Assembly: GCA_030649735.1 (NCBI GenBank)
Contig: JAUSFL010000023.1
Coordinates: forward strand, 15,698-79,697
Direction: 5' to 3'
From: Candidatus Iainarchaeum sp.
GTDB lineage: Archaea; Iainarchaeota; Iainarchaeia; Iainarchaeales; UBA10191
Length of the DNA stretch: 64,000 bases
Part shown: piece by piece, positions 1-13,841 of the stretch
Layout: every line of letters begins with the position of its first letter
How positions within the stretch are numbered: position 1 is the first letter of the stretch
Notes under the pieces: model-generated
What the model was told of the DNA's origin: nothing
The model's input: only the letters and a program-made list of their open reading frames with translations
Database searches by the model: none
Program-made: the position numbers and the translations under genes

Positions 1-1163
1 TTGTTTTGTCGCATGCGCATTTGGACCATATTGGCTTTGTTCCTGCTTTAATCAAGCATGGCTTTAAGGGAAAAATTTACTGCACTAAGCCGACAAGGGA
101 TTTGATGCACGTTTTATTGGCTGACGCTTTTGCTATTTCCAAAGAGCGCGGCCAAGAGCTTTATTCAGCGAAAGACATTGAGAAGACAATGCGGCTTGTT
201 GAGGTTGTCCCTTTTGAAAAATCAGTGAAAATTTCAAGGAATTTTTCCTTCAAGCTTTTTTCTTCTGGCCATATTATTGGCTCTGCAATGATTTTGATGA
301 ATTGCGCTGGCAAGCATTTGCTTTACACTGGGGATTTTAACACTCGGGAATCAAATCTTTTGGAAGGCTGTAAGATTCCTAAGGAGAAAGTTGATTTTTT
401 AATTATGGAAGCGACTTATGGCTCCAAGAAAGACATGCTGCCTTCATTGAAGTCTGTGAGCAAGGAATTTGCTGACGCTGTGAACGGGACTTTTCTTTTG
501 GGCGGCAAGGTTTTAGTGCCTGTTTTTGCTGTTGGAAGAGGGCAGGAGTTGATGTTTGTTTTGGAGAATTACATTCGCTCTGGTTATCTTCCTTGCGACA
601 CTGTTGTTTTTGTTGATGGAATGATTAATTCTGTGAACAAGATTTGCAGGCATAATGTCGTTTTTTTGAGGCCTGAAATTCCTGCAAGGATTTTGAATTC
701 TGATGATGATCCTTTCAAGAGCCCTTTTTTCAAGATTCCGGAATCTAAAAGCAAGTCTGAAGTTTACGCTGCGGAGAACGCGGTTATTTTGGCCACTAGT
801 GGAATGCTTACTGGCGGGCCTTCTGTTTCATACTTCAAAAGGCTTGCGAGGAACGAGCGCAATTTGATTGCTTTGGTTGGCTTTCAAGGAAAGGACAGTT
901 TGGGCAGGGAATTATTGAATGGGGCCAAAGAAGTCAAAATAAAGGAAAGCAGGGTTCCTGTCAAGGCAATGGTTAGAAAATTCGGCTTTTCAGGCCATGC
1001 GGATTTTTTGGGGCTGTTTGAGTTTGTCCGAAAGATTGCGCCTTCAAAGATTTTCATTGTTCACGGCGAGCATTCAAAGCAGTTGGAGTTTGTTGCCGTG
1101 GTTAAGAATAAATTGAAGAAAGAGGCTATTGTTCCAAAGGCTTTGGAAGTGTTTGACTTATGA
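1..1163 (+). CDS. beta-CASP / metallo-beta-lactamase family ribonuclease (aCPSF/RNase J-like), C-terminal part; 5' end lies outside the window
   Basis: Reading frame is open to the window edge. An HxHxDH metallo-beta-lactamase motif (HAHLDHIG) sits at the start. About 380 aa of beta-CASP-like sequence follow, ending with an FSGHAD-type motif. Confidence 0.6.
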   Translation, partial: VLSHAHLDHIGFVPALIKHGFKGKIYCTKPTRDLMHVLLADAFAISKERGQELYSAKDIEKTMRLVEVVPFEKSVKISRNFSFKLFSSGHIIGSAMILMNCAGKHLLYTGDFNTRESNLLEGCKIPKEKVDFLIMEATYGSKKDMLPSLKSVSKEFADAVNGTFLLGGKVLVPVFAVGRGQELMFVLENYIRSGYLPCDTVVFVDGMINSVNKICRHNVVFLRPEIPARILNSDDDPFKSPFFKIPESKSKSEVYAAENAVILATSGMLTGGPSVSYFKRLARNERNLIALVGFQGKDSLGRELLNGAKEVKIKESRVPVKAMVRKFGFSGHADFLGLFEFVRKIAPSKIFIVHGEHSKQLEFVAVVKNKLKKEAIVPKALEVFDL

Positions 1164-1570
1164 GTGAGAAGAAAGCCCAGGTTGCCGCGGAGTACCTTAT
1201 AATAAGCGGTTTTTTGCTGTTGGCAGTGATTGTTTTTTTCATTTACTCGATTTCAAGCTATAATGATTCTGTTTCTTTCACCAAGGCAAAGAATGTCGTT
1301 GATTCATTGTCTAATACTGCATCGCAGCTTTCCGGCCTTGGGAATGGCAGTTCTTTGGTTGTTGACTTGGAGTTTCCTGAAAACATCCAGTCTTTTCAGG
1401 TTTCTGGAAAGACATTCAGGCTTTTTTTGACTACTGGCTCAGGAACGCAAGAGTATTATGCGGAGTCAAGGCTTGACTTGAATTCTGCTGTTCTTCCATT
1501 GACTTCTGGATTTCATTCAATCAAGGTTTCGCGCTTGAACAACAAGGTTGACTTTGTAGAGGTAAAATGA
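1160..1570 (+). CDS. class III signal peptide (archaeal type IV pilin-like) protein; minor pilin or pseudopilin candidate
   Basis: N-terminus is MSEKKAQVAAEYLIISGFLLLAVIVFF: a basic stretch, an AQxxAAEY Flp/archaeal prepilin-like motif, then a TM helix. Start overlaps the upstream stop (ATGA). Confidence 0.55.
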   Translation: MSEKKAQVAAEYLIISGFLLLAVIVFFIYSISSYNDSVSFTKAKNVVDSLSNTASQLSGLGNGSSLVVDLEFPENIQSFQVSGKTFRLFLTTGSGTQEYYAESRLDLNSAVLPLTSGFHSIKVSRLNNKVDFVEVK

Positions 1571-1945
1571 ATGATTTCTGGCTTTAGGGCGCAGATTTCC
1601 ACAGAGGCTTTGTTCGCTGTTGTCATTATCTTGATCATTGGGCTTGTAATAAGCGTTTTTGCTTCTTTGAAAAGCTCTGAGTCTTCAGGCTTGTTCACTG
1701 CTTTTTCTGAAAAGGCGGAGTGCGAAAAGGTTTCTTCAATAATTTATTCCCTTTCCAATTCCAGCGCAAAGCCAAGCGTTGTTTTTGACTTGGACTTGAA
1801 TGCTTCGGTTCTGAACGGCTTTGTTTATGTCGGGGAGTATTATTGCGATTTTTTGGGTTCTGCTTCTGACGCGAATATTTCTTCAGGCACTTGGATTGCT
1901 TCAAAGAATTCTCAAGGGGTTGTTGTTTTTGCCAAAGTCGCTTGA
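1571..1945 (+). CDS. class III signal peptide (type IV pilin-like) protein
   Basis: N-terminus is MISGFRAQISTEALFAVVIILIIGLVI: the G-F-R-A-Q-x-S-x-E motif typical of prepilins, followed by a TM helix. Tightly packed after the previous gene. Confidence 0.55.
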   Translation: MISGFRAQISTEALFAVVIILIIGLVISVFASLKSSESSGLFTAFSEKAECEKVSSIIYSLSNSSAKPSVVFDLDLNASVLNGFVYVGEYYCDFLGSASDANISSGTWIASKNSQGVVVFAKVA

Positions 1946-2432
1946 CTCTAAAGGCCAGTCGATTTTTCTTGACCTGGCTTTTGGGGTTTTTTTGTTCTTG
2001 CTGTTGTTTGCCTTCATTTACTCGCAGTGGCAAACTAATATTTCTGTGGCAAGCCAGGAGTCTGATTTTGAAGAGCTTTCTTCAAGGGCCTTGATGTCTT
2101 GCGATTCTTTGGTTTCTTCGGCCGGAACTCCTGCAAACTGGTTCTTGCTTTCAAGCGCGGATGACATTAACACAATTGGAATCGCAAGGAAAAAGCGTTC
2201 TCTTGACGACAGGAAGCTCTCAAGGTTTTTGTCATTGGATTATAATGTTTCCCAGCAAAAGCTGAAGCTTTCCGGCTTTGACTTTTACTTTCACTTGTTC
2301 AATTCCAATGGAATCGATTTCAATTATGGCGTTTCTCCAGACTCAAACAAGGTTGTTGTTTCCTTGAGGAGAATTGTCGACTATCAAGGGGTGGAAAGCA
2401 TTGTCGATTGCTCAGTCTACAGGCAAGAATAG
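1920..2432 (+). CDS. pilin-like protein with class III signal peptide; start codon uncertain (TTG)
   Basis: The ORF-track frame 1821..2432 overlaps the previous gene by ~120 nt. In-frame TTG codons at 1920, 1923 and 1929 give LPKSLDSKGQSIFLDLAFGVFLFLLLFAFIY, i.e. a KGQS prepilin-like motif plus a TM helix. Confidence 0.4.
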   Translation: MLFLPKSLDSKGQSIFLDLAFGVFLFLLLFAFIYSQWQTNISVASQESDFEELSSRALMSCDSLVSSAGTPANWFLLSSADDINTIGIARKKRSLDDRKLSRFLSLDYNVSQQKLKLSGFDFYFHLFNSNGIDFNYGVSPDSNKVVVSLRRIVDYQGVESIVDCSVYRQE

Positions 2433-4812
2433 CCTGAAAGGGTTTGTTTTCAGCATTGACGCTGTTTTGGCCGTGATTCTAGTAAGCTCTGCAATTCTTG
2501 CAACGCAAACAAGCTTTTTCCAGTATTCCCATTCGTCAATCAATGTTCTTGCAAAGTCTGCTGATGACGTTTTTTCGACTTTGCAGGACACTGGGTTTTT
2601 GTTTCAGGAAACAGACAGGAATTCACTGGACAATGCCGCGCTTTCCTTTTACTTCAAGGCGAAGGGGCTTTTGCCTTCAAACTCTGGCCTTCAAGTCAGG
2701 CTTTCACAATATAATTTGAATAAGGAATCCTGCAGGCAATTCAAGGATTTTAACAACTGTTTTGCTTTGGCTGGAGAAGTCATTGTCGGTGATGCAATTG
2801 ACAGCAATGAAATTGCTTTTGGAAAGCGGTTGATTGTTAAAAAGCAAAGCCCCGGAGACTGCAATATTTCCGCGCAGTTTTCAGACTTGCCGCTAAATCA
2901 GTTTCCAAAAGAGTTTGGCAGTGCTTTTTTTGACACTGCTTTTTTTGCTTCTGGCGGCGATTTGAACATCGGAGTTGCCGCAAGCTATAACAGCCTTCCT
3001 TTAATGTCTGGAAGTTCAATACAGTGTGATGAGAACATTCATGTTGACTTGAATGCTTATTTTCCAACCACTGGAAGGCCTCCAATAAACATGATTTTTG
3101 GATCTGACAAGAGCTTGAGCATGGGGGAATGCACCATTGCCAAAGGAATTGTTTTGGACTCAAATAAAGGAACAACCTCTTCAACTTTCGTCAAAATTCA
3201 CGAGTTTTCTTTAAGCGACAATAATGCTTTTGATGTCTTGCTTGAATGGTCTGCCACTTGTTCTTCAAACTGTCCTGAAATGTACGTTGTCGCGCCTAAT
3301 GGCACTACAAAGTATGGCCTTGGTTTTCCTTCAACTACTGACTTGAATGTCAAAACTTGCAATTCTGGAGACTCTTTGAATTCCAAGGCTTATTATTTGG
3401 GCAAGTCCACTTTTGACTATTTGGCAGTTAACTCTAATGTCGGAAATTCTAAGTCCGGAACTTGGCAGGTTTGGGCAAGAAAGTCCGGAAGCGCGATTGA
3501 TTACAACTTGACTGTCAAAAGAATAAGGAATGATTATTTTTCCTCAAGCACTCTGACTGTTTTGCCTTGGAATAATCCAATTTCAAAGATTGAACTGGCC
3601 CAGGTTTTTATTGCAAGGTTTAATGAAAATGCTTTGTGGGATCCTGTTGCTGACGAGTATGCTTATGCTGAAATTGGCACTGACAAGAAAAGTGGCGGTA
3701 ATGGTTCTTCAATACAACCTAGCAGTGGCTTAAGGCCTATTGGAGACCAGGCCTTCAAAAGCCAGTTGAAGAATCTTTCCCCAGTAAGCGTTGATTCTTC
3801 GGCTTATGGGTTTGCAATGTCTGGCGACGACATGATGAATGATATTCTTGCAGACCAGCCGTCTGCCGAAGTCCGGGCAGAAATTATTTTTGGAGATGCA
3901 AATAGTTATGGAACTCCAAATGCGGTCGCTGCCGCGCAGGATGCAAAGGATAGGAACATTGTTGTTTTCACTGTTGGCTTTGGAAGAGACCATAATTTCA
4001 CTGACTTGAAAATGATTTCCGCAATTACTGGTGGGACTTTTTACAATGCTTCTGACGAGAATGCTTTGCTTTCAATTTTTGATACTATTGCGCAGAGGAT
4101 TTTTGCGCTTTCGGGCTACGCCTACGGAATTGGAATTCCTGACTTGAATATTACAATTCCAGTCCTTGCTGGCAGTGAAATTAACACTCCAGCAAGCAAT
4201 TTTCAGGGAACTTTTGAGCTTTCTTCAAGTTCTTTGCGATTTTTCATCACAGACATTAATATTTTGAGTCCTTGGTATGGATCTTATAATATTTCGTTCC
4301 CCTGCACAATGTCTTGCGCTTCGGAAAAAAAATACCTTCCGGAATTTGGAACAAATTACTCTTACACAGACACTAATGGAAATTATTACGCGAATAATTT
4401 TGACATAAACAAGTACATTGACGTTAATTTTTTGTATAGGGACTTAAGGCTTTCTTTTATGAATGCCGAATTGTTTGATATTAACCATTTGACTGTCACT
4501 GCACAGCTTTCTAATGTCGGCGACTTGAACACTTTAAGTTATCCTTCAGGAATGACTGACTTGAACTTTTCAGTAAATGGCTCTTTTGCCGGAACCAAGA
4601 CAATTCAAGGGCTTTGTGGGCATTTGAATCCTTTATGCGGCCTTTGGTTTGACTTAAACAGCGTGGAATTGTTTCGGGAGGGTGAAATTGAGGTTTCTAT
4701 TGACGCAAATAAGGCGCGTGATTGTCCTTTGGGGAATTCTGTAAAAATAATCTGCAATTCTCAATTAATCACCCAATTTTATGTTGTTGAGTTTGGAGTG
4801 TGGGAAAAATGA
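2374..4812 (+). CDS. large pilin-like protein with class III signal peptide and a vWA (von Willebrand factor A) domain; TadG-like pseudopilin / tip adhesin candidate
   Basis: N-terminus KGFVFSIDAVLAVILVSSAILA is prepilin-like. A MIDAS DxSxS motif (MIFGSDKSLSM) lies near nt 3115. The vWA C-terminal signature NIVVFTVGFG...ITGGTFYNASDENALLSIFDTIAQRI lies near nt 3960-4090. An alternative TTG start is at 2401. Confidence 0.6.
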   Translation: MSTIKGWKALSIAQSTGKNSLKGFVFSIDAVLAVILVSSAILATQTSFFQYSHSSINVLAKSADDVFSTLQDTGFLFQETDRNSLDNAALSFYFKAKGLLPSNSGLQVRLSQYNLNKESCRQFKDFNNCFALAGEVIVGDAIDSNEIAFGKRLIVKKQSPGDCNISAQFSDLPLNQFPKEFGSAFFDTAFFASGGDLNIGVAASYNSLPLMSGSSIQCDENIHVDLNAYFPTTGRPPINMIFGSDKSLSMGECTIAKGIVLDSNKGTTSSTFVKIHEFSLSDNNAFDVLLEWSATCSSNCPEMYVVAPNGTTKYGLGFPSTTDLNVKTCNSGDSLNSKAYYLGKSTFDYLAVNSNVGNSKSGTWQVWARKSGSAIDYNLTVKRIRNDYFSSSTLTVLPWNNPISKIELAQVFIARFNENALWDPVADEYAYAEIGTDKKSGGNGSSIQPSSGLRPIGDQAFKSQLKNLSPVSVDSSAYGFAMSGDDMMNDILADQPSAEVRAEIIFGDANSYGTPNAVAAAQDAKDRNIVVFTVGFGRDHNFTDLKMISAITGGTFYNASDENALLSIFDTIAQRIFALSGYAYGIGIPDLNITIPVLAGSEINTPASNFQGTFELSSSSLRFFITDINILSPWYGSYNISFPCTMSCASEKKYLPEFGTNYSYTDTNGNYYANNFDINKYIDVNFLYRDLRLSFMNAELFDINHLTVTAQLSNVGDLNTLSYPSGMTDLNFSVNGSFAGTKTIQGLCGHLNPLCGLWFDLNSVELFREGEIEVSIDANKARDCPLGNSVKIICNSQLITQFYVVEFGVWEK

Positions 4813-5765
4813 GCCTGCGAATTTCCCGGAAGGGAATTTTGTTCACTTTCATGTCCTTGCTTTTGATTCTTTCACTGCTTTCATTGGTTGATTCTTTGAA
4901 TTCGCAAAGGTCAAGCCTTAAGGCAAACGCGGCTTTAGTTTATTCCCTGAATTCCACTAGTTCTCGCTTTGACAACGTATATTCCGACTTTGTTTTTTTG
5001 GACAAGGACGCCAATGCAAGGCTTGTTGACCAAAGGAACCTGCCTTTTTCATACTCTATGGATTATAATTCTTTGAGCATTGTTCAAGAGCTTCCTTTGA
5101 GGATTAGTGTTTGGAACAATTACTTTGACCTTGTAAACGCTTATGTTATTTTTTTGAAGGACTCTAACACCGGGTTTTCAAGCGAATTTGCAGTTGATGC
5201 AAACACTGTGAAAAACGCGATTTGGGGCGGCAGCGTTCAAGACTTGAATTTCGTGCTTTTGCCCCAGTGCCTTTTTTATGACGTGAATTCTTCGCTTTAC
5301 TCGGCCGGGTTTTATTCAGCATCTTTTTCTGGCTGTTCTTTTGACTCTTCAAAAATCGGCAAGTATTCGGTAATTGTTTCCTTGAAAAGCCCTGCTGTTG
5401 AAGACTATAATTCAATAACTTACAATATTCCCGGCTTTTCAAATCCGGCAAATCCGGCTTTTGAATTCCTGCTTTTGGACAATAACTGCGCCAAATGCTC
5501 TCTTTCCCAGGCAAGCAAGAGCATTATTGGCTATTTTGACCCGACGCAAAGCGGCTGGATTACTGTAAAGTGCGTTGGGGCTTTGTGCCATTCCAAAGAC
5601 ATTAATATTTTCGTCAGTTCCGGCTTGCAGGCATTTCATTCTGGAGAGCGCGTGGACGTGAATTTCACTGTAAAATTCAAGAATTTCATTGATTCCTTTT
5701 ATTTCAAGGACTTTAATGCGTCAGTGACAAACAATGATTTTAACATTGTCTATTCGAATGCCTAA
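4809..5765 (+). CDS. pilin-like secreted/membrane protein (class III signal peptide-like N-terminus)
   Basis: MSLRISRKGILFTFMSLLLILSLLSLV: an RKG motif followed by a hydrophobic helix. ATGA overlap with the upstream gene. Seen only within the pilus locus. Confidence 0.45.
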   Translation: MSLRISRKGILFTFMSLLLILSLLSLVDSLNSQRSSLKANAALVYSLNSTSSRFDNVYSDFVFLDKDANARLVDQRNLPFSYSMDYNSLSIVQELPLRISVWNNYFDLVNAYVIFLKDSNTGFSSEFAVDANTVKNAIWGGSVQDLNFVLLPQCLFYDVNSSLYSAGFYSASFSGCSFDSSKIGKYSVIVSLKSPAVEDYNSITYNIPGFSNPANPAFEFLLLDNNCAKCSLSQASKSIIGYFDPTQSGWITVKCVGALCHSKDINIFVSSGLQAFHSGERVDVNFTVKFKNFIDSFYFKDFNASVTNNDFNIVYSNA

Positions 5766-5811: not shown

Positions 5812-7668
5812 ATGGGTTTTTTCCAAAGCATAATGGAGCTTTTTGGCCTGAGAAAGAAGAAAATTCTAGATTCTTCCAGCAAGGCTGCAATCCCTGTCCA
5901 GCCTGTCCCAAGGCTTGCTGAAAAAGCCCTGCCAAAAAATTCCTTGCTTGAGGAAAAGTTTGATTCGCCTTCTTCAAGTTCTTCAAGGAAAAAGTTCGCT
6001 TTCGGGAAAAACAAGCCTGTTTTGAAGCGGGCAAAGCAAAAGTCGGTTAATCCCTTGCAGTTTGAGGTAGAGCAGATTTTGACTGCCGCGCTTTCATTGA
6101 AAAAAAAGATTGAAGCCAGGAAAAGGAAAAAGCATTCTAAATCAAAGAAAAAAAAGCCAAAAAAGCTTTCAAAAAAGCAGCAAAGGCGGCTTTTAATCAA
6201 GGAATTGAAGGAAACTTTGACTCCATTGTCTCCCGAAGTGCTTAATAAAATGAAAAACAAGGTTTCCCGGGCAAATCCTTTGACTGCCGTTGAAATCCAG
6301 CGCTTGAGGTTTAATTTGAACAGCGGCCTTGCTGCCAAAAACCCCGAAGAGGCCGAAATCCGCACTGAAGAGCTTGACCGCATTAGAAAAACCCTTTTGG
6401 AAAAGCCCGCGGCAAGCATTACTGAAAAAGAATTGCGCACTGAAGAATTGGAAAGAATCCGCAAGTCTCTTGCAGAGCCTGGAGGAAATGGCCGCGACCG
6501 GCCTTTTCAATCAGCAGAAACACAGTCTCAAGCCTCGCAAAATAACTTTCAAGCCATTCCTAAATCTCAAAGTCTTCAACAGCAGGATTCAATGCCTTCT
6601 GTTCGGCAGCAGAATTCACAGCCGCAATTTTCCGGAATTCAAGGAACTGTTGTCCAAGTGCCTGAAGGCGCGAGCGTTTTCATAGGAAGCCAGCCGCCGC
6701 AAGTCCAGCAGGCTGTTCAGCAAAAAAAGTCTGAAGAGTCCCAATTAAGCATTGATGATGACATTTCAGCGACTGAAAGGCTGCTTAAGGCCTTGGAGCA
6801 GGATTATTTGAAGCGCAGGATTTCAGAGCAAGAGTACAGGCAAAGGGTTTTGGACCTGAACCAAAGATTGCGCGAATTGAAAATCAAGAAGAAAATTCAG
6901 GGAGAAAAGCCTGTTGAAATAAAGCTTCCTGATTCTGAAAAACCCCTGGAAGATCCGGAACAAAAAATTCCAGCGCCCGCGCCAGCCTCAAAGCCTTTAA
7001 GATCAAAATTTCAGTTTTCCAGGCCTTCAGTGCATTATGCTGTTCCGCAAGGCAATGATTCCTTGACTCCGGAAATGCAGAAGTTTTTGCAGGAACGGCT
7101 TGGCAAAAGCGATGACGCAAAGCTTTCAGAGCTTGAAGCGAACGTGCAAAAGCTAATGAAAAAATACAATCTTTCAGAATCAGAGGCAGAGGAAAAAATA
7201 GCGAAAATTGACAGCCCGAAGGTCTTGCAAAGCTTTGACAAGCTTGTTGACTTGATTGAGCTTGAGCAGCGCACCCAGAAATTAATGCAGGAGCAATTGC
7301 AGATTGCAAAAGACCGTTCTCCAAAGCAGGAGGAAAAGTCCGAGTTTGGAAGCGGGTTTGAGGCAGGGGTTCCAAAAAAGAAAATTGAAGAAGTGAAGGC
7401 AATTGTTGTTGAATTGCAAAAGCACCGCATTGTGACAGACTTTGACAAGCTTTTGGAGCTGGTTCAAAGTAAGGGAAAAGTGAGTGAAAGCGACGCATTT
7501 AAGGAATTGAAGATTTCCAAGGACAAATTAAAGGATTGCATTAATGTTTTGGAGCAGAACAATCTTGTGAGGGTTGAGTTTCCGCCGATTGGAACGTCAG
7601 TCATTTTTGACGTTAATTACATCCCTCCAGTGAAGCTATCCAAGCAGGAAAAGAATGAAAAAAAGTGA
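5812..7668 (+). CDS. Lys/Glu-rich coiled-coil, low-complexity protein of unknown function within the pilus locus
   Basis: Long K-rich tracts (KRKKHSKSKKKKPKKLSKKQQRR). An internal ~25-aa duplication (EIRTEELDRIRKTL / ELRTEELERIRKSL). A possible winged-helix-like C-terminal ~90 aa. Immediately upstream of the ATPase. Confidence 0.5.
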   Translation: MGFFQSIMELFGLRKKKILDSSSKAAIPVQPVPRLAEKALPKNSLLEEKFDSPSSSSSRKKFAFGKNKPVLKRAKQKSVNPLQFEVEQILTAALSLKKKIEARKRKKHSKSKKKKPKKLSKKQQRRLLIKELKETLTPLSPEVLNKMKNKVSRANPLTAVEIQRLRFNLNSGLAAKNPEEAEIRTEELDRIRKTLLEKPAASITEKELRTEELERIRKSLAEPGGNGRDRPFQSAETQSQASQNNFQAIPKSQSLQQQDSMPSVRQQNSQPQFSGIQGTVVQVPEGASVFIGSQPPQVQQAVQQKKSEESQLSIDDDISATERLLKALEQDYLKRRISEQEYRQRVLDLNQRLRELKIKKKIQGEKPVEIKLPDSEKPLEDPEQKIPAPAPASKPLRSKFQFSRPSVHYAVPQGNDSLTPEMQKFLQERLGKSDDAKLSELEANVQKLMKKYNLSESEAEEKIAKIDSPKVLQSFDKLVDLIELEQRTQKLMQEQLQIAKDRSPKQEEKSEFGSGFEAGVPKKKIEEVKAIVVELQKHRIVTDFDKLLELVQSKGKVSESDAFKELKISKDKLKDCINVLEQNNLVRVEFPPIGTSVIFDVNYIPPVKLSKQEKNEKK

Positions 7669-7675
7669 TTTGTGA

Positions 7676-9208
7676 ATGTCGGCAAAGATTTTGGAAAATT
7701 ATGACGTGAAGGCAGACAATGTCGCCGTTGAAGTGCAGGTTGTCGAGGCAGAGAACGAGTTTGTAAGGCAGTACTTGCTCAGCATTCCAGAATACGGCCT
7801 TGGGACAAAGGCGCTTTTGGAAAACTTGAAAGCGTCAATAATAACCGATGCGGGCATCAATGCGGAGAAAATGCTCAACCCAAAATTCATGAAAGAATTA
7901 AAGGACAGGTTTGCAGAAAAAGCCGGCAAATTATTGCAGAGGGAATTGCCTGACTCAAAGCCTGAAATAAGGAACACTTTGATTGGGCTTTTGATCCATG
8001 AAATGCTTGGCTTGGGAAAAATAGAGTTTTTGCTTGCTGACGGGAATTTGGAAGAAATTGTCATTAATTCTGCAGCAGAGCCAATTTGGGTTTATCACAA
8101 GAAGTTCGGCTGGCTGAAATCCAATGTTTTTGTCGAGCCAGAGGCTGAAATCCAGAATTTTGCAAACATCATTGCAAGAAGGGTTGGAAAGCAAATAACC
8201 ACTTTGAATCCATTGCTTGACGCGCACTTGATTACTGGAGACCGCGCAAACGCGACTTTATTCCCGATTTCCACGCGCGGAAACACAATCACAATAAGGC
8301 GCTTTAGGAGAGACCCTTGGACTGTTACAGACATTATTGACAACAAGACGGCGTCTGCGGAATTAATGTCTTTGGTGTGGCTTGCAATACAGTATGAAAT
8401 GAACATTTTGATTTCCGGCGGAACTGGCTCTGGAAAAACCTCAATGCTGAACGTATGCATGCCTTTCATTGAAGCAAACAATCGAATAATATCTATTGAG
8501 GACACCAGGGAAATCCAATTGCCCGAGTTTTTGCACTGGGTTCCTTTGACAACGCGCGAGCCGAATTCTGAAGGCAAGGGAGAAATCTCAATGCTTGACT
8601 TGCTTGTCAATAGCTTGAGAATGCGGCCTGACAGGATAATTGTCGGAGAAGTCAGGAGGCAAAGGGAAGCCGAAGTGATGTTTGAGGCAATGCACACAGG
8701 CCATTCAGTGTACACTACAGTGCACGCCAACACTGCCGATGAAACAATCCGCCGCTTGGTCAGCCCCCCAATAAGCATTCCGATAACAATGCTTGATTCA
8801 GTGCATTTGAACCTTGTAATGTTCAGGAACAGGCGCGTTGGCGCAAGAAGGGTTTTGCAGCTTGCCGAATACATCAGTGAAAAGCGCTCTGAAAATGAAG
8901 AGCGCGTGCGCGCGAACATTTTGTACCGCTGGAAGCCAGCCTCTGACGAAATTTCAAAGCATTCTGAAAGCATTCGATTTTATGATGAGCTTGCAATGCA
9001 CACTGGCTTCACGCCTGATGAAATGCAGGCTGACTTGAAGCAAAAGAAGGAAATCCTCGAATGGCTTGTGAAAAACAAGATTCGCGACATTTCAAGCGTT
9101 GGAAGAGTGATTGCCGAATATTATCTGGACACTTCAAGCATTACTTCGCTTGTTGAAAAAAACAAGGTTCCTTCATGGTTTGTTGAGAAGAGGGCGGTTG
9201 TAGAGTGA
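7676..9208 (+). CDS. type IV filament assembly ATPase, FlaI/TadA/VirB11 (GspE) family
   Basis: Walker A GGTGSGKTS, Asp/Walker B box RPDRIIVGEVR, His box HTGH. About 510 aa, matching archaeal secretion-superfamily ATPases. Confidence 0.9.
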   Translation: MSAKILENYDVKADNVAVEVQVVEAENEFVRQYLLSIPEYGLGTKALLENLKASIITDAGINAEKMLNPKFMKELKDRFAEKAGKLLQRELPDSKPEIRNTLIGLLIHEMLGLGKIEFLLADGNLEEIVINSAAEPIWVYHKKFGWLKSNVFVEPEAEIQNFANIIARRVGKQITTLNPLLDAHLITGDRANATLFPISTRGNTITIRRFRRDPWTVTDIIDNKTASAELMSLVWLAIQYEMNILISGGTGSGKTSMLNVCMPFIEANNRIISIEDTREIQLPEFLHWVPLTTREPNSEGKGEISMLDLLVNSLRMRPDRIIVGEVRRQREAEVMFEAMHTGHSVYTTVHANTADETIRRLVSPPISIPITMLDSVHLNLVMFRNRRVGARRVLQLAEYISEKRSENEERVRANILYRWKPASDEISKHSESIRFYDELAMHTGFTPDEMQADLKQKKEILEWLVKNKIRDISSVGRVIAEYYLDTSSITSLVEKNKVPSWFVEKRAVVE

Positions 9209-10113
9209 AAGCCAAGCCAAAGGCAAAAAAGAAGATTTCAATTCCTTTCGCGCCTTTTCCACTGCCTGTCTTGAAGAACATTGCGCAAAATTTTTTAGGA
9301 ATCGGGGAAATGATAGCGCATGCCTTTCCATACCTTGAGCTTCAGCTAAAGCAGGCTGAAATTGAATTGAAGAAGGAAGAGTACGGCGCGATAATGTTCT
9401 TGATGTTTGTTTTTTACTTTTTGCTTTTTGGGCTGCTTGTTTACTTTGTGGCATTAAGGCTTGCGCCAAAGCAGGCGTTGCCAATGGCTTTCACTATTGG
9501 CGGAGTTTTAGGGCTTTTGATTCTTGTTCAATTAAGCGCTTATCCAGCAATCCTTGTCAAAAAGAAAGTTCGCGACATTGAAAGGAACTTGGTTTTTGCC
9601 TTGCGCACAATGCTCATTGAAATAAAGTCCGGGGTTTCCTTGTTTGATACATTGAATGTCATTGCGCAAGGCGATTATGGGATTTTGAGCGATGAATTCA
9701 AGCAGGCAATTGATGAGATAGAGACTGGCACTGCGGAAGAGGACGCTTTGCAGAAGATTGCAATGCAAAATCCTTCATTGTTTTTCAGGAAGGCATTGTG
9801 GCAATTGGTTAATGGAATGAAGGCCGGCGCTGATGTCGCGACTGTAATGACAGAGCTTGTCAATTCAATTGGAAAAGAGCAGGTCATTGAAATAAACCGT
9901 TACGGCGGCTCGCTACGACTGCTTTCATTGATTTACATGATGATGGGGGTCATTATTCCTTCAATGGGCTTGACTTTGCTCATTGTGCTGTCTTCTTTTC
10001 CGCAAATCAAGATTGTGGATGAAATGTTTTGGGGACTGCTTGCATTGGTTGTTTTAATGCAGTTCATGTTTTTGGGGTTTATGAAAAGCAAGAGGCCGAA
10101 TCTTATCGGGTGA
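9205..10113 (+). CDS. TadB/FlaJ-like polytopic membrane platform protein (T2SS-F domain)
   Basis: T2SS-F-like segment LIEIKSGVSLFDTLNVIAQ...ALWQLVNGMKAGADVATVMTELVNSIGKEQ flanked by TM helices. ATGA-type overlap with the ATPase gene. Confidence 0.8.
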   Translation: MKAKPKAKKKISIPFAPFPLPVLKNIAQNFLGIGEMIAHAFPYLELQLKQAEIELKKEEYGAIMFLMFVFYFLLFGLLVYFVALRLAPKQALPMAFTIGGVLGLLILVQLSAYPAILVKKKVRDIERNLVFALRTMLIEIKSGVSLFDTLNVIAQGDYGILSDEFKQAIDEIETGTAEEDALQKIAMQNPSLFFRKALWQLVNGMKAGADVATVMTELVNSIGKEQVIEINRYGGSLRLLSLIYMMMGVIIPSMGLTLLIVLSSFPQIKIVDEMFWGLLALVVLMQFMFLGFMKSKRPNLIG

Positions 10114-10120
10114 ATAAAGA

Positions 10121-11104
10121 ATGGTTTACAGCAGGATTTCAGCGTTTATTCCTTCAGGCATCAGGGAAGCCTTTGCGAAAGAAATAGATTATTTAGGAAT
10201 TAATATCGAGTCCGGAAAGTTTGTCGGATTCATTTTTTCATTCGGGCTTGCCTTAAGCCTTGGCATTGCATTAAATCTTCAATTGTTTTACCAAATTCCT
10301 TTCCTGCTTTCATTCGCGCTTTTTGCGAGCCTTTTCATTGGCGGAATTTATGTCTGGCTTAGCATTACTGCGGAAAGCAAGGGAAAGTTTGTCGAAAAAA
10401 TCTTGCCCGATGCCTTGCAGTTGATTGCAAGCAACATTCGCTCTGGCTTGACGACTGAAAGGGCATTATTGGTTTCTGCAAGGCCTGAATTCGGGCCTTT
10501 GGAGGAAGAGTTGAGAAAAGCATCCAAGCGCATTCTTACAGGAACTCCAATACAGGAGGCATTGTCAGACATTCCAAAGCGCATTAATTCCAAGACTGTC
10601 GAGAAAACAATTTGGCTTGTGAATAAGGGAGTTTCTTCAGGCGGCCAGATTGCGGATGTCTTGACACAGCTTTCTGACGACTTGCGGGAGCAGAATTCAT
10701 TGCAGGATGAAATTCGCGCGAACATCAGCATTTATGTGATGCTCATTTTCTTTTCCGCAGCAATTGGGTCTCCAATAATGCTTGGAATTTCCTCTTTTAT
10801 AGTGCAGATTCTGCACAAGCAGATTTCAGGCATTCAGACTGTTGACACTTCAAGGATTTCTGCGCATTCCAAAAGCCCGTTTTCTGGAATTCCAAAATCA
10901 AGCATTGACCCTGACTTTGTGCTGGTTTTTGCAGAATTGTCCTTGCTTGTCACGACGATTTTTGCCTCAATGACAATGGGAATAATCAATACTGGCAATG
11001 AAAAGAACGGCTTGAAGTACTTTCCTGCCTTGCTGATTGTTTCTTTCGGGATTTTCCTGGCAATACGGTTTGTGCTTTTCACAATGTTCAAGGCAATGGT
11101 CTAG
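10121..11104 (+). CDS. TadC/FlaJ-like polytopic membrane platform protein (second T2SS-F domain protein)
   Basis: T2SS-F-like segment LQLIASNIRSGLTTERALLVSA...WLVNKGVSSGGQIADVLTQLSDDLREQ with multiple TM helices. Together with the previous gene it resembles a split FlaJ or a TadB+TadC pair. Confidence 0.8.
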   Translation: MVYSRISAFIPSGIREAFAKEIDYLGINIESGKFVGFIFSFGLALSLGIALNLQLFYQIPFLLSFALFASLFIGGIYVWLSITAESKGKFVEKILPDALQLIASNIRSGLTTERALLVSARPEFGPLEEELRKASKRILTGTPIQEALSDIPKRINSKTVEKTIWLVNKGVSSGGQIADVLTQLSDDLREQNSLQDEIRANISIYVMLIFFSAAIGSPIMLGISSFIVQILHKQISGIQTVDTSRISAHSKSPFSGIPKSSIDPDFVLVFAELSLLVTTIFASMTMGIINTGNEKNGLKYFPALLIVSFGIFLAIRFVLFTMFKAMV

Positions 11105-11199: not shown

Positions 11200-11613
11200 T
11201 TAAACAGTTCCTGCAACGCAAGTTGTTGATTCAGTGTGTGAAATTCCGTTGGCAGTGTATGAGATGCTCATTACATACGTTGACCCTGCCGCTATTGGAC
11301 TTGTGAAGACAGCGTTAGTGTCTGCGCTTCTTGATAAGCTAGTGCTTCCCATTAATCCCGCGCCTAAGTCTCCGCTTGCGTTAAGGTCGCTCATTGTGCC
11401 TGAAGAGCCGTTTTGGATTGCTAGGCTGATTCCTGTTGCTTGAATTGCGTAATCCTTCAACAGCAGTCTTCCGCCGAACTGCGTGCAGTTTGCTGGAGTG
11501 TTGAAAACACCGAAAGCGAACAAGGCTGCGACAACAATTACTATTACTACCAAGGCCCACCCGTAAGTCATGAGGTATTCCAAGGCTGATTGTCCCTTAC
11601 TGTTCAATTGCAT
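11200..11613 (-). CDS. Flp-like / archaeal type IV major pilin precursor (class III signal peptide)
   Basis: From the internal ATG at 11613: MQLNSKGQSALEYLMTYGWALVVIVIVVAALFA, a classic KGQ-SALEY prepilin motif plus TM helix. C-terminal half is Ser/Thr/Gly/Asn-rich. GGAGGA sits immediately upstream. The upstream part of the long ORF (to 11715) is treated as non-coding. Confidence 0.8.
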   Translation of the reverse strand: MQLNSKGQSALEYLMTYGWALVVIVIVVAALFAFGVFNTPANCTQFGGRLLLKDYAIQATGISLAIQNGSSGTMSDLNASGDLGAGLMGSTSLSRSADTNAVFTSPIAAGSTYVMSISYTANGISHTESTTCVAGTV

Positions 11614-11724: not shown

Positions 11725-12477
11725 ATGTTTGTAATTATGGCTGCAGCTTCAAAAAAGCAGGAATTGGCCGGCGCCTCTTTAGATTCCGTAAAGCGAATTC
11801 AAACAGGAATTCAAGGCTTTGATGAATTGGTTGAGGGTGGAATTCCCGCAAACTCATTGGTTGTCTTGACTGGCTCTTGCGGCACTGGAAAAAGCACTTT
11901 TGCAATGAATTTTCTGGTGCAGGGCGCGTTGAATGGCGAGCCAGGATTGTACATTAGCCTGGAAGAGAATGTTGACGACAACATTCAAGAAATGACTTTG
12001 TTTGGCTGGCCAATCAAGAAATTGATTGAAGAAAAAAAGCTTGCCATAACACAGCCTGAACTGTATGATTTTGACAAGCTTGTAACCCACATTGAGGATT
12101 TTGTCTCAAAATTGAAGGCAAAGCGGATCGTAATTGACTCTTCCTCATTGATTGGCTTGTATTTTAAGGACGCTTTCAAGGTAAGAAAGGCAATGGTTGA
12201 CCTTGAGACAATGCTCAAGCGATTGAATTGCACTGCGATGGTGATTAATGAAGTCAAGGAAGGCGATGCCGGGCTTTCAACTTACGGCGTTGAAGAATTC
12301 ATTGCCGACGGCGTCATTGTATTGTACTGCCAGAAGAAGGAAAACCTGTACACTAGGGCAATAAACATCAGGAAAATGCGTTCCACAAACCATTCAATGA
12401 AAATCCACCCAATCCACATTAAAAGGCCCGGGGGCATTACGGTTTTTGCTTCTGAGGAAGTTTTCACTGAATTTTAG
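11725..12477 (+). CDS. FlaH/KaiC-like RecA-superfamily ATPase (single RecA domain)
   Basis: IQGFDELVEGGIPANSLVVLTGSCGTGKSTF (Walker A), ...GVEEFIADGVIVL..., ...IRKMRSTNHS... match the FlaH/KaiC/aRadC pattern. About 250 aa. Confidence 0.8.
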   Translation: MFVIMAAASKKQELAGASLDSVKRIQTGIQGFDELVEGGIPANSLVVLTGSCGTGKSTFAMNFLVQGALNGEPGLYISLEENVDDNIQEMTLFGWPIKKLIEEKKLAITQPELYDFDKLVTHIEDFVSKLKAKRIVIDSSSLIGLYFKDAFKVRKAMVDLETMLKRLNCTAMVINEVKEGDAGLSTYGVEEFIADGVIVLYCQKKENLYTRAINIRKMRSTNHSMKIHPIHIKRPGGITVFASEEVFTEF

Positions 12478-12523: not shown

Positions 12524-13228
12524 ATGGTTACAATGGAATTTGAGAGGACAAAGTCCGGAATTCCCGGCTTTGATGAATTATTGTATGGGGGCATTCCGAA
12601 AGGAAACCTTGTAGTGCTTTCAGGAGACCCCGGCTCTGGAAAGACTGTTTTTTGCTTCATGTTTTTGTATGAGGGCGTTTTGCGCTTTGACGAGCCCGGA
12701 ATTTACGTCAGCCTGGAAGAAAGCGCTGACGATCTTTTGAGCAATTCATTGGAGTTTGGAATGGACCTGGCCCCGTTGATCAAGGCAAACAAGCTGAAAA
12801 TAATAACAATCGAGCTTTATGACTTTGACAAGCTGAAAAGCTCGATTGAGGATGCCGTGCAAAGCATTGGCGCAAAGCGCGTTGTCGTTGATCCAGGCGT
12901 TGTTTTCAGGCTTTTCTTTGAGAAAGAGCTTGACGCCAGAAAGCGCATTCTTTCGCTTGGAAAAATGCTCAAGCATTTGGGCTGCACCAGCGTCGTGACA
13001 AACGAGCTTTCGCTGGATGATAGCAAGAGCCTTTTTGGATTGGAAGAGTATGTTGCTGACGGCGTGGTTTTAATGTATCACACCAAGTCCCAAAATCGCT
13101 TCATTCGAAGCATTGCCGTAGTGAAAATGCGCGGCACAAAGATTTCGGAAAACCTGCATCCTTTGCAGATTGCAAAGAATGGATTGAAGGTTTTGTCAAC
13201 GCAGGAATTGTTTGAGGATGTTGAGTAA
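12524..13228 (+). CDS. FlaH/KaiC-like RecA-superfamily ATPase (second paralog)
   Basis: IPGFDELLYGGIPKGNLVVLSGDPGSGKTVF (Walker A), GLEEYVADGVVLMY, VVKMRGTKIS. About 234 aa. Confidence 0.8.
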   Translation: MVTMEFERTKSGIPGFDELLYGGIPKGNLVVLSGDPGSGKTVFCFMFLYEGVLRFDEPGIYVSLEESADDLLSNSLEFGMDLAPLIKANKLKIITIELYDFDKLKSSIEDAVQSIGAKRVVVDPGVVFRLFFEKELDARKRILSLGKMLKHLGCTSVVTNELSLDDSKSLFGLEEYVADGVVLMYHTKSQNRFIRSIAVVKMRGTKISENLHPLQIAKNGLKVLSTQELFEDVE

Positions 13229-13841
13229 GATGCCTTTAAAGCCTTCTGGTTTTTCTGATTTTGACTTTGAGCAATTGCTTAGCCCGAACCGCGCGATAAA
13301 CTCAAAGATTTCCTTGGCTTTGGATGGCATTCCCAATGATTTTGTGGTTTTGTTCATTGTTGACTTGAAGAATTATGCGGGAACTGTTGTTGAATTATTG
13401 CGTGTGCTTCAATTGGAAAATAATACTGGGGTTTACTTGACAATAAACAAGCCGGTTGAGGATTTAATCCGCACTTTCAAAGCCCAAAGGCTTGACACTG
13501 AAAAGATTTTTTTCATTGACGCAATAAGCGCTCTTTCTGAAAGGAAGACTTTGGAGTCCCAAAACATTATTTTGCTTGACAGTCCCACGGACTTGATTGA
13601 AATAAACAATATTGTTTCGAAAAAAATCGCGTTGGAAGAGAGCAAGTTTGTTGTTTTTGACTCATTGAGCACTTTGCTTTTGTACAATAAGCCAATGGCT
13701 GTTGAGAAATTCCTGCATGTTTTGGTCGGCAAAATGCGCGGCTCCAGGGTCAAGGGCTTTTTGATTACTGTAAAAAGCTCTGAGCATGCCGGATTGATTG
13801 AAACAATCAGCCAGTTTGTCGACAAGATTGTTGAAATTTAA
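13212..13841 (+). CDS. KaiC/FlaH-like paralog with a degenerate (lost) P-loop
   Basis: Same overall pattern (GFSDFDFEQLL...DGIPNDFVVLFIV..., VGKMRGSRV) but no GxxGxGK[ST] motif. Its start overlaps the preceding paralog. Confidence 0.55.
   Translation: MRMLSKMPLKPSGFSDFDFEQLLSPNRAINSKISLALDGIPNDFVVLFIVDLKNYAGTVVELLRVLQLENNTGVYLTINKPVEDLIRTFKAQRLDTEKIFFIDAISALSERKTLESQNIILLDSPTDLIEINNIVSKKIALEESKFVVFDSLSTLLLYNKPMAVEKFLHVLVGKMRGSRVKGFLITVKSSEHAGLIETISQFVDKIVEI

Follow-up and report, generated by a model that had tools for sequence, protein, structure and literature searches.

What does a protein of about 800 residues with a VWA domain do among the pilin-like genes of an archaeal type IV pilus locus: is it part of the filament, an accessory of the machine that builds it, or an unrelated neighbor? 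The gene lies in a 64,000-nucleotide stretch of DNA (the window) from an archaeon of the DPANN group, Ca. Diapherotrites/Iainarchaeum, and the first-pass annotation, made from the letters of that stretch, had described its product as a prepilin-like vWA protein and a candidate TadG-like tip adhesin. The underlying reading frame of about 800 codons is indeed present on the plus strand at 2374–4812 (812 aa when counted from the first possible TTG in the list of open reading frames), as are all of the strings quoted from it: KGFVFSIDAVLAVILVSSAILA at residues 13–34, FGSDKSLSM at 233–241, VVFTVGFG at 521–528, and GGTFYNASDENALLSIFDTIA at 544–564. The TTG at 2401 is likely to be the true start, which gives a protein of 803 aa; we prefer it because a Shine-Dalgarno-like AAGGGGTGG lies 7 nt 5' of this codon and because the resulting protein is identical to an 803-aa NCBI entry (P0001, "VWA domain-containing protein [Ca. 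Diapherotrites archaeon]"). Residues are numbered from TTG 2401 throughout, which is the first-pass numbering minus 9.

The VWA gene is accompanied, within 10 kb, by genes for five more class III-type proteins, one T2SSE ATPase and two T2SSF platform proteins (Table 1, in which a slash marks the cleavage-type site of each N-terminus). Small pilin-like gene 3, which has a weak DUF7287 match, overlaps the start of the VWA gene, and the ATG of the ~320-aa partner gene overlaps its stop codon (ATGA); these start and stop codon overlaps suggest co-translation. The assembly ATPase scores 278 bits against NCBIfam FlaI and 190 bits against the TadA family, both under the equivalog cut-offs, and the platform genes give weak NCBIfam ArlJ/UpsF matches. 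Five loci, namely the window and the related loci L001, L002, L003, and L006, share one gene order at 30–65% identity: three small pilin-like genes, VWA gene, ~320-aa partner, ATPase, pair of platform genes. A GTDB locus search with one family alignment (A1) returned three loci only. Orthologues of small genes 1 (in the same position) and 2 occur in L001 and L002, and those of gene 3 in L001, L002, and L003. In L001 and L002 the VWA gene is immediately followed by an orthologue of the partner (52% and 35% identity), and a gene of ~300 aa occupies its position in L006, while L001 and L006 also carry minus-strand genes of ~148 aa in a place equivalent to that of the candidate major pilin. A prepilin peptidase (A24-like) was not found in the 64-kb window by a GxGD motif and multi-TM scan or by Pfam over multi-TM ORFs of >200 aa; these turned up a ZIP transporter, an Rce1-like protease and nothing else. 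Searches for tRNAs and Rfam families across the window gave no matches.

Table 1. Genes of the pilus locus and parts of the VWA protein, by position in the window.
Feature	Position	Strand	Basis or remark
Small pilin-like gene 1, 136 aa (KKA/QVAAEYL)	1160..1570	+	Class_IIIsignal E 8e-4, under cut-off
Small pilin-like gene 2, 124 aa (FRA/QISTEAL)	1571..1945	+	N-terminal motif
Small pilin-like gene 3 (SKG/QSIFLD)	1929..2432	+	Likely start in-frame TTG 1929 after AGGGG
Gene for 803-aa VWA protein	2401..4812	+	Stop 4810-4812; longest ORF from 2374
Class III-type signal leader, aa 1-14 (MSIAQSTGKNSLKG)	2401..2442	+	Short, basic; predicted cleavage after G14
Hydrophobic N-terminal helix, aa 15-36 (FVFSIDAVLAVILVSSAILATQ), conserved acidic D20 at +6	2443..2508	+	
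Remainder of conserved N-terminal module, aa 37-225	2509..3075	+	Helices 45-90, then beta strands
VWA beta-1 strand and MIDAS loop, aa 226-242	3076..3126	+	D236-K-S238-L-S240 = 3106-3120
Inserted beta-sandwich, aa 243-391, Cys 244, 287, 291, 320	3127..3573	+	Between MIDAS loop and alpha-1
Rest of VWA domain, aa 392-575	3574..4125	+	alpha-1 (396-408), VVFTVGFG, GGTFYNASDENAL motifs
S467 (MIDAS Thr position)	3799-3801	+	
D499 (MIDAS Asp)	3895-3897	+	
C-terminal beta-sandwich 1, aa 576-668, invariant C635-x3-C639	4126..4404	+	Strands 581-666
CARDB-like C-terminal beta-sandwich, aa 669-803, Cys pairs 739/746 and 775/785	4405..4809	+	
Conserved ~320-aa partner, RKG/ILFTF N-terminus without acidic residue	4809..5765	+	Sequence
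Type IV filament assembly ATPase (FlaI/TadA-like)	7676..9208	+	Pfam T2SSE E 1.4e-37
Two platform genes (T2SSF / FlaJ-TadC-like)	9205-10113 and 10121-11104	+	T2SSF E 1.9e-14, 6.9e-17
Candidate major pilin (MQLNSKG/QSALEYL...)	11200..11613	-	N-terminal motif; ORF to 11715, likely Met 11613

The N-terminus of the VWA protein reads MSIAQSTGKNSLKG/FVFSIDAVLAVILVSSAILA, a short charged leader and a cleavage-type site followed by a hydrophobic helix; no other segment of the protein is hydrophobic. To describe residue conservation we used a family alignment of 77 members, in which the denominators vary from column to column. Position −1 is Gly or Ala in 52/52 sequences and position −2 is Lys or Arg in 42/52, while +6 is acidic (Asp or Glu) in all 61 and +10 is Ala in 59 of 64; the family motif is [KR][GA]F.F[ST].[DE]A..A and then a hydrophobic stretch, preceded by a leader of typically 4–25 aa. 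The acidic residue thus stands at +6 rather than at the classical +5, and Phe at +3 may not fit the strict FlaFind pattern. Pfam and NCBIfam searches at E ≤ 1 gave no class III signal (PF04021, PF07790), pilin or N-methylation match for the protein. When its profile is aligned with that of the neighboring KG/Q pilin-like protein 3, KG falls on KG and D on D in the same register; the profile-profile alignment covers signal and helix, and the heads do not align. The invariant −1 and +6 positions, the shared register with this neighbor and the type IV pilus operon support the prepilin-like N-terminus that had been proposed.

The region that follows the helix was examined in an AF2 model built from the 77-sequence alignment (mean pLDDT 85.5; a version built from 8 sequences gave 54.7 and was set aside). 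The model places helices at residues 19–36 and 45–90 and then strands at 95–155, with pLDDT mostly >90 across residues 50–160. In the family alignment this N-terminal module contains invariant Cys 111, 120, and 209 and a near-invariant Cys 154, and it is common to proteins with differing C-terminal parts. Sequence searches of Pfam and the PDB, solved pilins included, returned no match to it; residues 37–225 presumably constitute a pilin-like carrier module.

The first-pass annotation had placed a vWA/MIDAS domain between two motifs and named a Pfam search and a structure prediction as checks, and both bore it out. Pfam PF00092 matches the protein at 28.4 bits (E 2.2e-6; the cut-off is 23.8 bits), although the match spans only profile positions 108–173, the C-terminal 40% of the domain model; VWA, VWA_3, and CARDB were the only matches in a Pfam scan of the whole protein (E ≤ 1). 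Pfam VWA also matches 18/18 relatives, at best with E 1.3e-22. In the predicted structure the Rossmann-like VWA fold, a six-stranded sheet with helices on its flanks, is complete and spans both motifs, with the beta-1 strand at residues 229–236, and Foldseek ranks the pilus adhesin SpaC first for the model (E 3.9e-11). The fold matches also include ArnB and VWA2 structures, and the closest structural match, BatB, is a membrane-anchored VWA protein with no link to pili. For the N-terminal half of the domain the evidence comes from the family alignment and from the model, because Pfam and PDB sequence searches did not detect this half even with the insertion spliced out.

The MIDAS columns are conserved in the family. 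Within the DxSxS motif the family has Asp in 61/67, Ser in 62/67 and Ser in 58/66 sequences, and the distal MIDAS Asp, D499 here, which aligns with the Asp of the integrin TDG, is present in 74 of 76 members. The position of the MIDAS Thr is occupied by Ser467 in the VWA protein (Thr in 55/76 and Ser in 11/76 of the family), and this VWA subfamily lacks the canonical Gly of DxSGSM. Since the Thr is a Ser and the Gly is absent, we regard divalent-cation binding by D236, S238, S240, S467, and D499 as no more than plausible.

The two VWA motifs had been noted to lie ~290 aa apart, with large insertions held responsible, and this spacing is accounted for by a real inserted domain of 148 aa together with a lengthened loop. 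The insertion follows directly upon DxSxS and is all-beta in the model (residues 249–390), and the subtilase SubHal (5fax) has a C-terminal beta-sandwich that the family profile of the insertion matches weakly (E 9.4e-4). As its point of insertion is adjacent to the MIDAS loop in sequence, the inserted domain presumably adjoins the binding face of the VWA domain. At the same insertion site several relatives (P0007–P0009, P0022, and others) carry an LVIVD beta-propeller, and this swap of beta-sandwich for beta-propeller among close relatives suggests a specificity module. A VWA domain, then, tolerates the insertion of whole domains at its MIDAS loop.

Two beta-sandwiches complete the protein. 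The first is modeled with pLDDT of about 90, and its Cys are conserved in 74/74 family members; the family profile of the last sandwich matches the CARDB-type structure 3idu in the PDB (E 1e-4) as well as 2kl6 and 2kut, and Pfam CARDB matches the VWA protein weakly and one relative with E 2.5e-5. The C-terminus had been characterized as Cys-rich and Asn/Ser/Thr-rich, which is partly apt: its ~228 residues contain 6 Cys in three conserved pairs, 10% Asn, 9.6% Ser, and 6.6% Thr. Over its whole length the protein has 14 Cys, most of which belong to conserved pairs, as well as 12 N-glycosylation sequons, and the single hydrophobic N-terminal segment, the Cys pairs and the sequons point to an extracellular location.

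From these features we consider the VWA protein to be, probably, a modular pilin-like surface adhesin, a minor pilin of a DPANN archaeal type IV pilus. A class III signal (prepilin) peptidase would remove the short basic leader after G14, and the hydrophobic helix, which bears the invariant acidic residue, would dock together with the ~210-aa N-terminal module into the core of a filament assembled by the FlaI/TadA-like ATPase and the two-gene platform encoded downstream. There the protein would probably be a low-abundance tip subunit, beside its ~320-aa partner and the products of the three small pilin-like genes; synteny, and the analogy of the minor-pilin complexes at the tips of bacterial pili, lead us to infer pilus incorporation and tip placement. 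The exposed VWA domain would hold a divalent cation at the MIDAS, with an acidic group of the ligand completing the coordination sphere, and the 148-aa beta-sandwich beside the binding face would presumably shape specificity. The two C-terminal beta-sandwiches, predicted to be disulfide-stabilized, the second being CARDB-like, may provide bulk or a further binding surface. The most likely role of the protein in the pilus would be to grip a surface or a host cell.

The same operon context would fit equally well an accessory of the pilus machine that is held in the membrane by an uncleaved signal anchor and has its VWA ectodomain at the base, where it would anchor, prime or gate the filament or link it to the cell envelope. 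Such a role was first proposed for TadG, there is a partial likeness to PilY1, and the failure of the class III signal models in Pfam and NCBIfam to match the VWA protein is in keeping with it. We nevertheless think this reading unlikely: a plain anchor needs neither an invariant Gly/Ala at −1, Phe at +1 and Asp/Glu at +6 nor a register in common with the neighboring KG/Q pilin-like protein, and the attachment of one N-terminal module to many large C-terminal parts fits a display carrier better. Were the protein only an accessory factor of this kind, its interest would be modest.

There is a small chance that the protein is a helix-anchored surface adhesin or envelope protein that functions independently of the pilus and merely adjoins its genes. 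VWA and CARDB-like domains are generic and common in archaeal surface proteins, and the database annotation goes no further than the VWA domain; against this stand the retention of gene order across the five loci despite their divergence, the overlap of start and stop codons with the flanking pilin-like genes, and the pilin type of the N-terminal motif. A regulator of pilus or archaellum expression, ArnB-like or MoxR-associated, is very improbable despite the ArnB and VWA2 fold matches and the fact that regulation is the one VWA function described to date in archaeal type IV filament systems and the only one that reviews of archaeal type IV pili mention, since the fold matches reflect the shared VWA fold alone, the hydrophobic helix, conserved Cys pairs and sequons indicate an extracellular protein, and no FHA/ArnA partner was found among the scanned operon genes and no MoxR/GvpN ATPase among the scanned window genes or the Pfam annotations of the related loci. 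Topology and neighborhood led us to reject the ArnB-like reading and a BatA/B-like one.

The interpretation of the VWA protein as a pilin-like adhesin admits a broader, more tentative extension: it is possible that a DPANN-wide family of "carrier pilins" uses the ~210-aa module to plug interchangeable adhesive heads into the type IV pilus tip. The carrier in question would comprise the class III signal, an acidic residue invariant at +6 and a pair of conserved disulfides. As heads, relatives display VWA with a beta-sandwich or with an LVIVD beta-propeller, and longer relatives have quite different C-terminal parts of 1,000–2,000 aa. If this extension were true, the inserted domain and the type of head would set which surface or host cell is bound, and the locus would be a host-range determinant for episymbiotic archaea. 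We know of no characterized tip adhesin of archaeal type IV pili, and a literature text search found none either. Little is known about the means by which DPANN archaea attach themselves to surfaces or to host cells, and the locus supplies a concrete, testable candidate with a defined ectodomain (residues ~40–803) and five MIDAS residues open to mutation.

Among known systems, the locus as a whole resembles the archaeal type IV filament "system 1" (Epd-like) loci, which have been reported, with large adhesin-like proteins, from methanogens and some DPANN (PMC4858521; bioRxiv 10.64898/2026.04.22.720090). Shared traits are one ATPase, a two-gene platform, numerous pilin-like genes, large proteins predicted to be adhesins, and KaiC-like ATPases close by; the "system 1" adhesin-like proteins differ in having DUF2341/PilY-like, galactose-binding or Ig-fold domains. 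The vWA or von Willebrand domain is mentioned zero times in bioRxiv 10.64898/2026.04.22.720090, and PMC4858521 names vWA only for ArnB-type regulators and bacterial TadG and describes no VWA pilin-like protein. Our literature search likewise found no class III signal-VWA protein described in archaea. SpaC, RrgA, PitA, and Mfa5 of sortase and type V pili also carry a VWA domain with a MIDAS at the pilus tip, surrounded by beta domains, but they are assembled in an unrelated way (by sortase, or by protease-mediated strand exchange) and have no pilin-type helix, so the likeness is a convergent use of the VWA fold.

Two bacterial type IV systems also invite comparison. PilY1/PilC is a large non-core pilus protein whose N-terminal vWA domain is implicated in adhesion and surface sensing, and the relatives with an LVIVD insertion similarly pair VWA with a beta-propeller. 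PilY1 is not a pilin, however, but a protein with a Sec signal that is carried by minor pilins. It has a C-terminal propeller of the PilY1 family, whereas that of the relatives consists of LVIVD repeats inside the VWA domain and is replaced by a beta-sandwich in the window protein, which has no PilY1 family (PF05567) match in Pfam at E ≤ 1. TadG is likewise a large pilin-like protein with a vWA domain, and the Tad locus offers parallels in small TadE/TadF-like pseudopilins along with a TadA-type ATPase and a pair of TadB/TadC-type platform genes. The label "TadG-like" accordingly holds as a functional analogy and fails as a family assignment, since Pfam detected no TadE/TadG or PilY1 domain: the VWA protein lacks a TadE/TadG-like N-terminal domain (PF07811, PF13400; E ≤ 1) and shows no detectable sequence kinship with TadG beyond generic VWA. 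Secretin and outer-membrane components are also absent, the cell envelope being archaeal.

A precedent for the architecture is PilB of Streptococcus sanguinis (PDB 7b7p), a type IV pilin of two modules, one of them a MIDAS-dependent vWA adhesin; PilB binds host proteins, and its proposed place is the tip (PMC8179133). Both proteins are encoded in a pilus operon and combine a class III-type signal and a pilin-type N-terminal module with a C-terminal vWA domain bearing a MIDAS, and in both extra structure flanks that site ("arms" in PilB, the inserted domain here). The bacterial PilB has Glu at +5 and carries the IPR012902 N-methylation motif, whereas the archaeal VWA protein has KG/F...D(+6) and no N_methyl match; its N-terminal module is larger (~210 aa) and unrelated in sequence, its VWA domain is divided by the 148-aa insertion and precedes two beta-sandwiches, and its MIDAS Thr is a Ser. 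If the pilin-like adhesin proposed here is borne out, the "modular pilin" principle established in bacteria by PilB would extend to archaea.

The open frame of the VWA protein (2374..4812, forward strand) runs without interruption and gives 812 aa when counted from its first TTG. The identical NCBI entry begins nine codons later, at the TTG at 2401, and has 803 aa, and a Shine-Dalgarno-like stretch, AAGGGGTGG, lies 7 nt 5' of this codon. For both reasons we numbered residues from 2401, nine below the numbers of the first-pass annotation. Each sequence string cited in that annotation was found in the protein: KGFVFSIDAV... at aa 13, FGSDKSLSM at aa 233-241, VVFTVGFG at aa 521-528, and GGTFYNASDENALLSIFDTIA at aa 544-564.

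That the protein carries a VWA domain is virtually certain. Pfam PF00092 matches it with an E value of 2.2e-6 and 28.4 bits (gathering score 23.8), with the match limited to the last 40% of the Pfam model, and in PDB sequence searches integrin alpha-1 I-domains align to the same C-terminal part, with D499 coinciding with the Asp of TDG in the metal site (MIDAS). An exhaustive profile search revealed a far larger family, with 99 cluster representatives at E<=1e-30; a poor AlphaFold model from 8 sequences (pLDDT 54.7) was superseded by one on a 77-sequence alignment (mean pLDDT 85.5). In the latter, strand 229-236 runs into the DKSLS loop and is followed, in VWA order, by helix 396-408, strands 419-425 and 491-498, helix 508-517, strand 520-527, helix 534-543, strand 547-550, and helix 554-573. 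Given the Pfam match and this topology, the vWA domain and the Rossmann-like fold proposed earlier between the two motifs both stand.

The MIDAS is canonical in most family members: DxSGSM ... GxT ... (S/T)DG. Within the 77-sequence alignment, Asp fills the D236 column in 61/67 and the D499 column in 74/76, Ser fills the S238 and S240 columns in 62/67 and 58/66, and column 467 is Thr in 55/76 and Ser in 11/76. The window protein and its nearest relatives have D-K-S-L-S at the MIDAS loop, Ser at the Thr position (DSSAYG vs GSTAIG), and GD instead of SDG, and therefore present oxygen side chains at all five putative metal-ligand positions.

Right after DxSxS, residues 243-391 (148 residues) depart from the VWA fold and are modeled as all-beta. 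The insert profile weakly matches the SubHal (subtilase) C-terminal beta-sandwich (E = 9.4e-4), and we tentatively assign the insert as a SubHal-like beta-sandwich. Relatives P0007-P0009, P0022, P0027, and others instead carry a large LVIVD-repeat beta-propeller (~400-600 aa) at this site, directly after DxSGSM (the P0007 gene spans 10001-13633 of L001, a related locus), so the position next to the metal site appears to be a hot spot of whole-domain insertion. The inserted domain accounts for the ~290-aa spacing of the motifs, from which large insertions had correctly been deduced.

C-terminal to the VWA domain, residues 576-803 form two beta-sandwiches, of which the second is CARDB-like (family profile against 3idu, E = 1e-4); the Pfam CARDB match of the window protein itself is weak. 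This part holds six Cys in three conserved pairs, with 635/639 and 775/785 invariant and 739/746 kept in 53 members of the family alignment, although its earlier description as Cys-rich was an overstatement. In the conserved module N-terminal to the VWA domain (aa 15-225), Cys 111, 120, and 209 are invariant and Cys 154 nearly so (65/67); Pfam and PDB sequence searches gave no relative of this module. The whole protein has one hydrophobic segment only (aa 14-35), 14 Cys, and 12 N-x-S/T sequons, features that fit an extracellular protein.

These modules recur in other arrangements. The ~210-aa N-terminal module also starts proteins of 1,200-2,200 aa (P0063, P0096, P0101, P0121, P0134, and others) whose remainder does not match the window protein. 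Short forms (P0145 and P0147, 332-361 aa) join a short helical module directly to VWA, and in the related locus L007 a Laminin_G_3 protein comes after the VWA member P0099.

The N-terminal sequence is MSIAQSTGKNSLKG/FVFSIDAVLAVILVSSAILA, with predicted cleavage at the slash; leaders are 4-25 residues long in most family members. Around this site the family alignment has K/R at -2 (42/52), G/A at -1 (52/52), F at +1 (44/54), S/T at +4 (51/57), D/E at +6 (61/61), and A at +10 (59/64). In profile-profile comparison the motif matches a neighboring small protein with a classical KG/Q site, KG-to-KG and D-to-D. The curated class III and pilin models of Pfam and NCBIfam gave no match to the window protein, and its acidic residue at +6, not +5, counts against a pilin-like reading. 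The prepilin-like character proposed earlier is thus borne out by the conserved motif and its register, but not by curated models or the acid position. We consider it likely that the protein is a processed component of a type IV filament system. The alternative, an accessory factor that stays uncleaved and anchored in the membrane at the base of the pilus, is unlikely, as the invariant N-terminal positions would be unnecessary in a plain membrane anchor.

The VWA gene is part of an operon-like array whose overlaps, 17 nt between the coding regions of small genes 2 and 3 and 32 nt between gene 3 and the VWA gene among them, suggest translational coupling within the pilin cluster. Listed ORF starts at 1821, 2374, and 4800 overextend gene 3, the VWA gene, and the partner gene, respectively.

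Genes of the pilus locus and its immediate surroundings in the window
Product	Position	Strand	Remarks
beta-CASP/metallo-beta-lactamase RNase (aCPSF-like)	6-1163	+	cut by window edge; directly upstream of pilin cluster
small class III-type protein 1	1160-1570	+	
small class III-type protein 2	1571-1945	+	
small class III-type protein 3	~1929-2432	+	
VWA protein	2401-4812	+	
~320-aa partner	4809-5765	+	class III-like RKG/ILFTF N-terminus; ATG overlaps VWA stop (ATGA)
variable protein	5812-7668	+	618 aa, low complexity, rich in K, E, Q
FlaI/TadA-like ATPase	7676-9208	+	
T2SSF platform protein	9205-10113	+	
T2SSF platform protein	10121-11104	+	
candidate major pilin	11200-11613	-	KG/QSALEYL
KaiC-like ATPase	11725-12477	+	
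KaiC-like ATPase	12524-13228	+	
KaiC-like ATPase	13212-13841	+	degenerate; DUF7504 match

The partner has an acidic residue at neither +5 nor +6, conserves several Cys, and has orthologues directly after the VWA gene in L001 and the related locus L002. It may serve as a capping or partner subunit; in lacking the acidic residue it recalls capping subunits of the GspK/PilX type. Toward its C-terminus the variable protein carries a conserved domain of ~70 aa (aa ~535-600) that weakly matches the E2F/DP winged helix and also occurs in the otherwise very different genes that stand before the ATPase, of 165 aa in L001 and 467 aa in L002. Archaeal type IV pilus loci are known to be accompanied by KaiC-family genes, and the three here are consecutive and lie beside the locus. 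Across the 64-kb window we found no A24 prepilin peptidase gene, no tRNA genes, and no Rfam families at gathering score.

The order of three small genes, VWA gene, ~300-340-aa gene, variable gene, ATPase, and two platform genes is repeated in four further loci, whose VWA proteins share ~40% (L001, relative P0007, overall), 44% (L002, P0005), 64% (L003, Ca. Iainarchaeum, contig covering the small genes through the ATPase only), and 30% (L006, P0014) identity with the window protein. Named family members belong to Ca. Diapherotrites/Iainarchaeum, Ca. Micrarchaeota, and unclassified archaea. An unrelated surface protein is improbable, and an ArnB-like regulator, which the topology contradicts, scarcely deserves consideration.

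A modular minor pilin or adhesin is the best-supported reading, and the earlier adhesin proposal is upheld at candidate level. The N-terminal helix and module would enter the filament built by the neighboring machine, and the VWA-plus-insert head would grip a ligand via the putative MIDAS cation. The protein would sit at the pilus tip, a position suggested by its size, the co-encoded small pilin-like proteins, and analogy to PilB of S. sanguinis, a type IV pilin that binds host proteins through its vWA module and has a MIDAS on which pilus function depends (PMC8179133). We hold this full model of an adhesin on a pilus to be somewhat favored.

Our search for DPANN pili linked to VWA proteins found no paper, and in the searchable archaeal type IV filament literature VWA proteins figure solely as cytoplasmic regulators of the ArnB type or where bacterial TadG is cited. 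Because database annotation already calls this a VWA protein, the domain is not new; three features appear previously undescribed, namely the N-terminal carrier module of pilin type, the insertion of domains at the MIDAS loop, and the conservation of the pilus operon in DPANN archaea.

Among known systems, the locus matches in layout archaeal type IV filament 'system 1', reported from methanogens and some DPANN (bioRxiv 10.64898/2026.04.22.720090), in having a single ATPase, a platform split in two, and numerous pilins. The TadG-like label holds as a resemblance to TadG-type vWA pseudopilins, yet the protein lies outside that family, and Pfam detected neither TadE/G nor N_methyl domains in it. 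It likewise resembles PilY1, but Pfam detected no PilY1 domain and the N-terminal module is a separate family; the VWA and propeller pairing of the relatives recalls PilY1 with a different topology. Likeness to sortase and type V pilus tip adhesins (SpaC, Mfa5) reflects convergent use of the VWA fold, and PilB is the nearest functional likeness.
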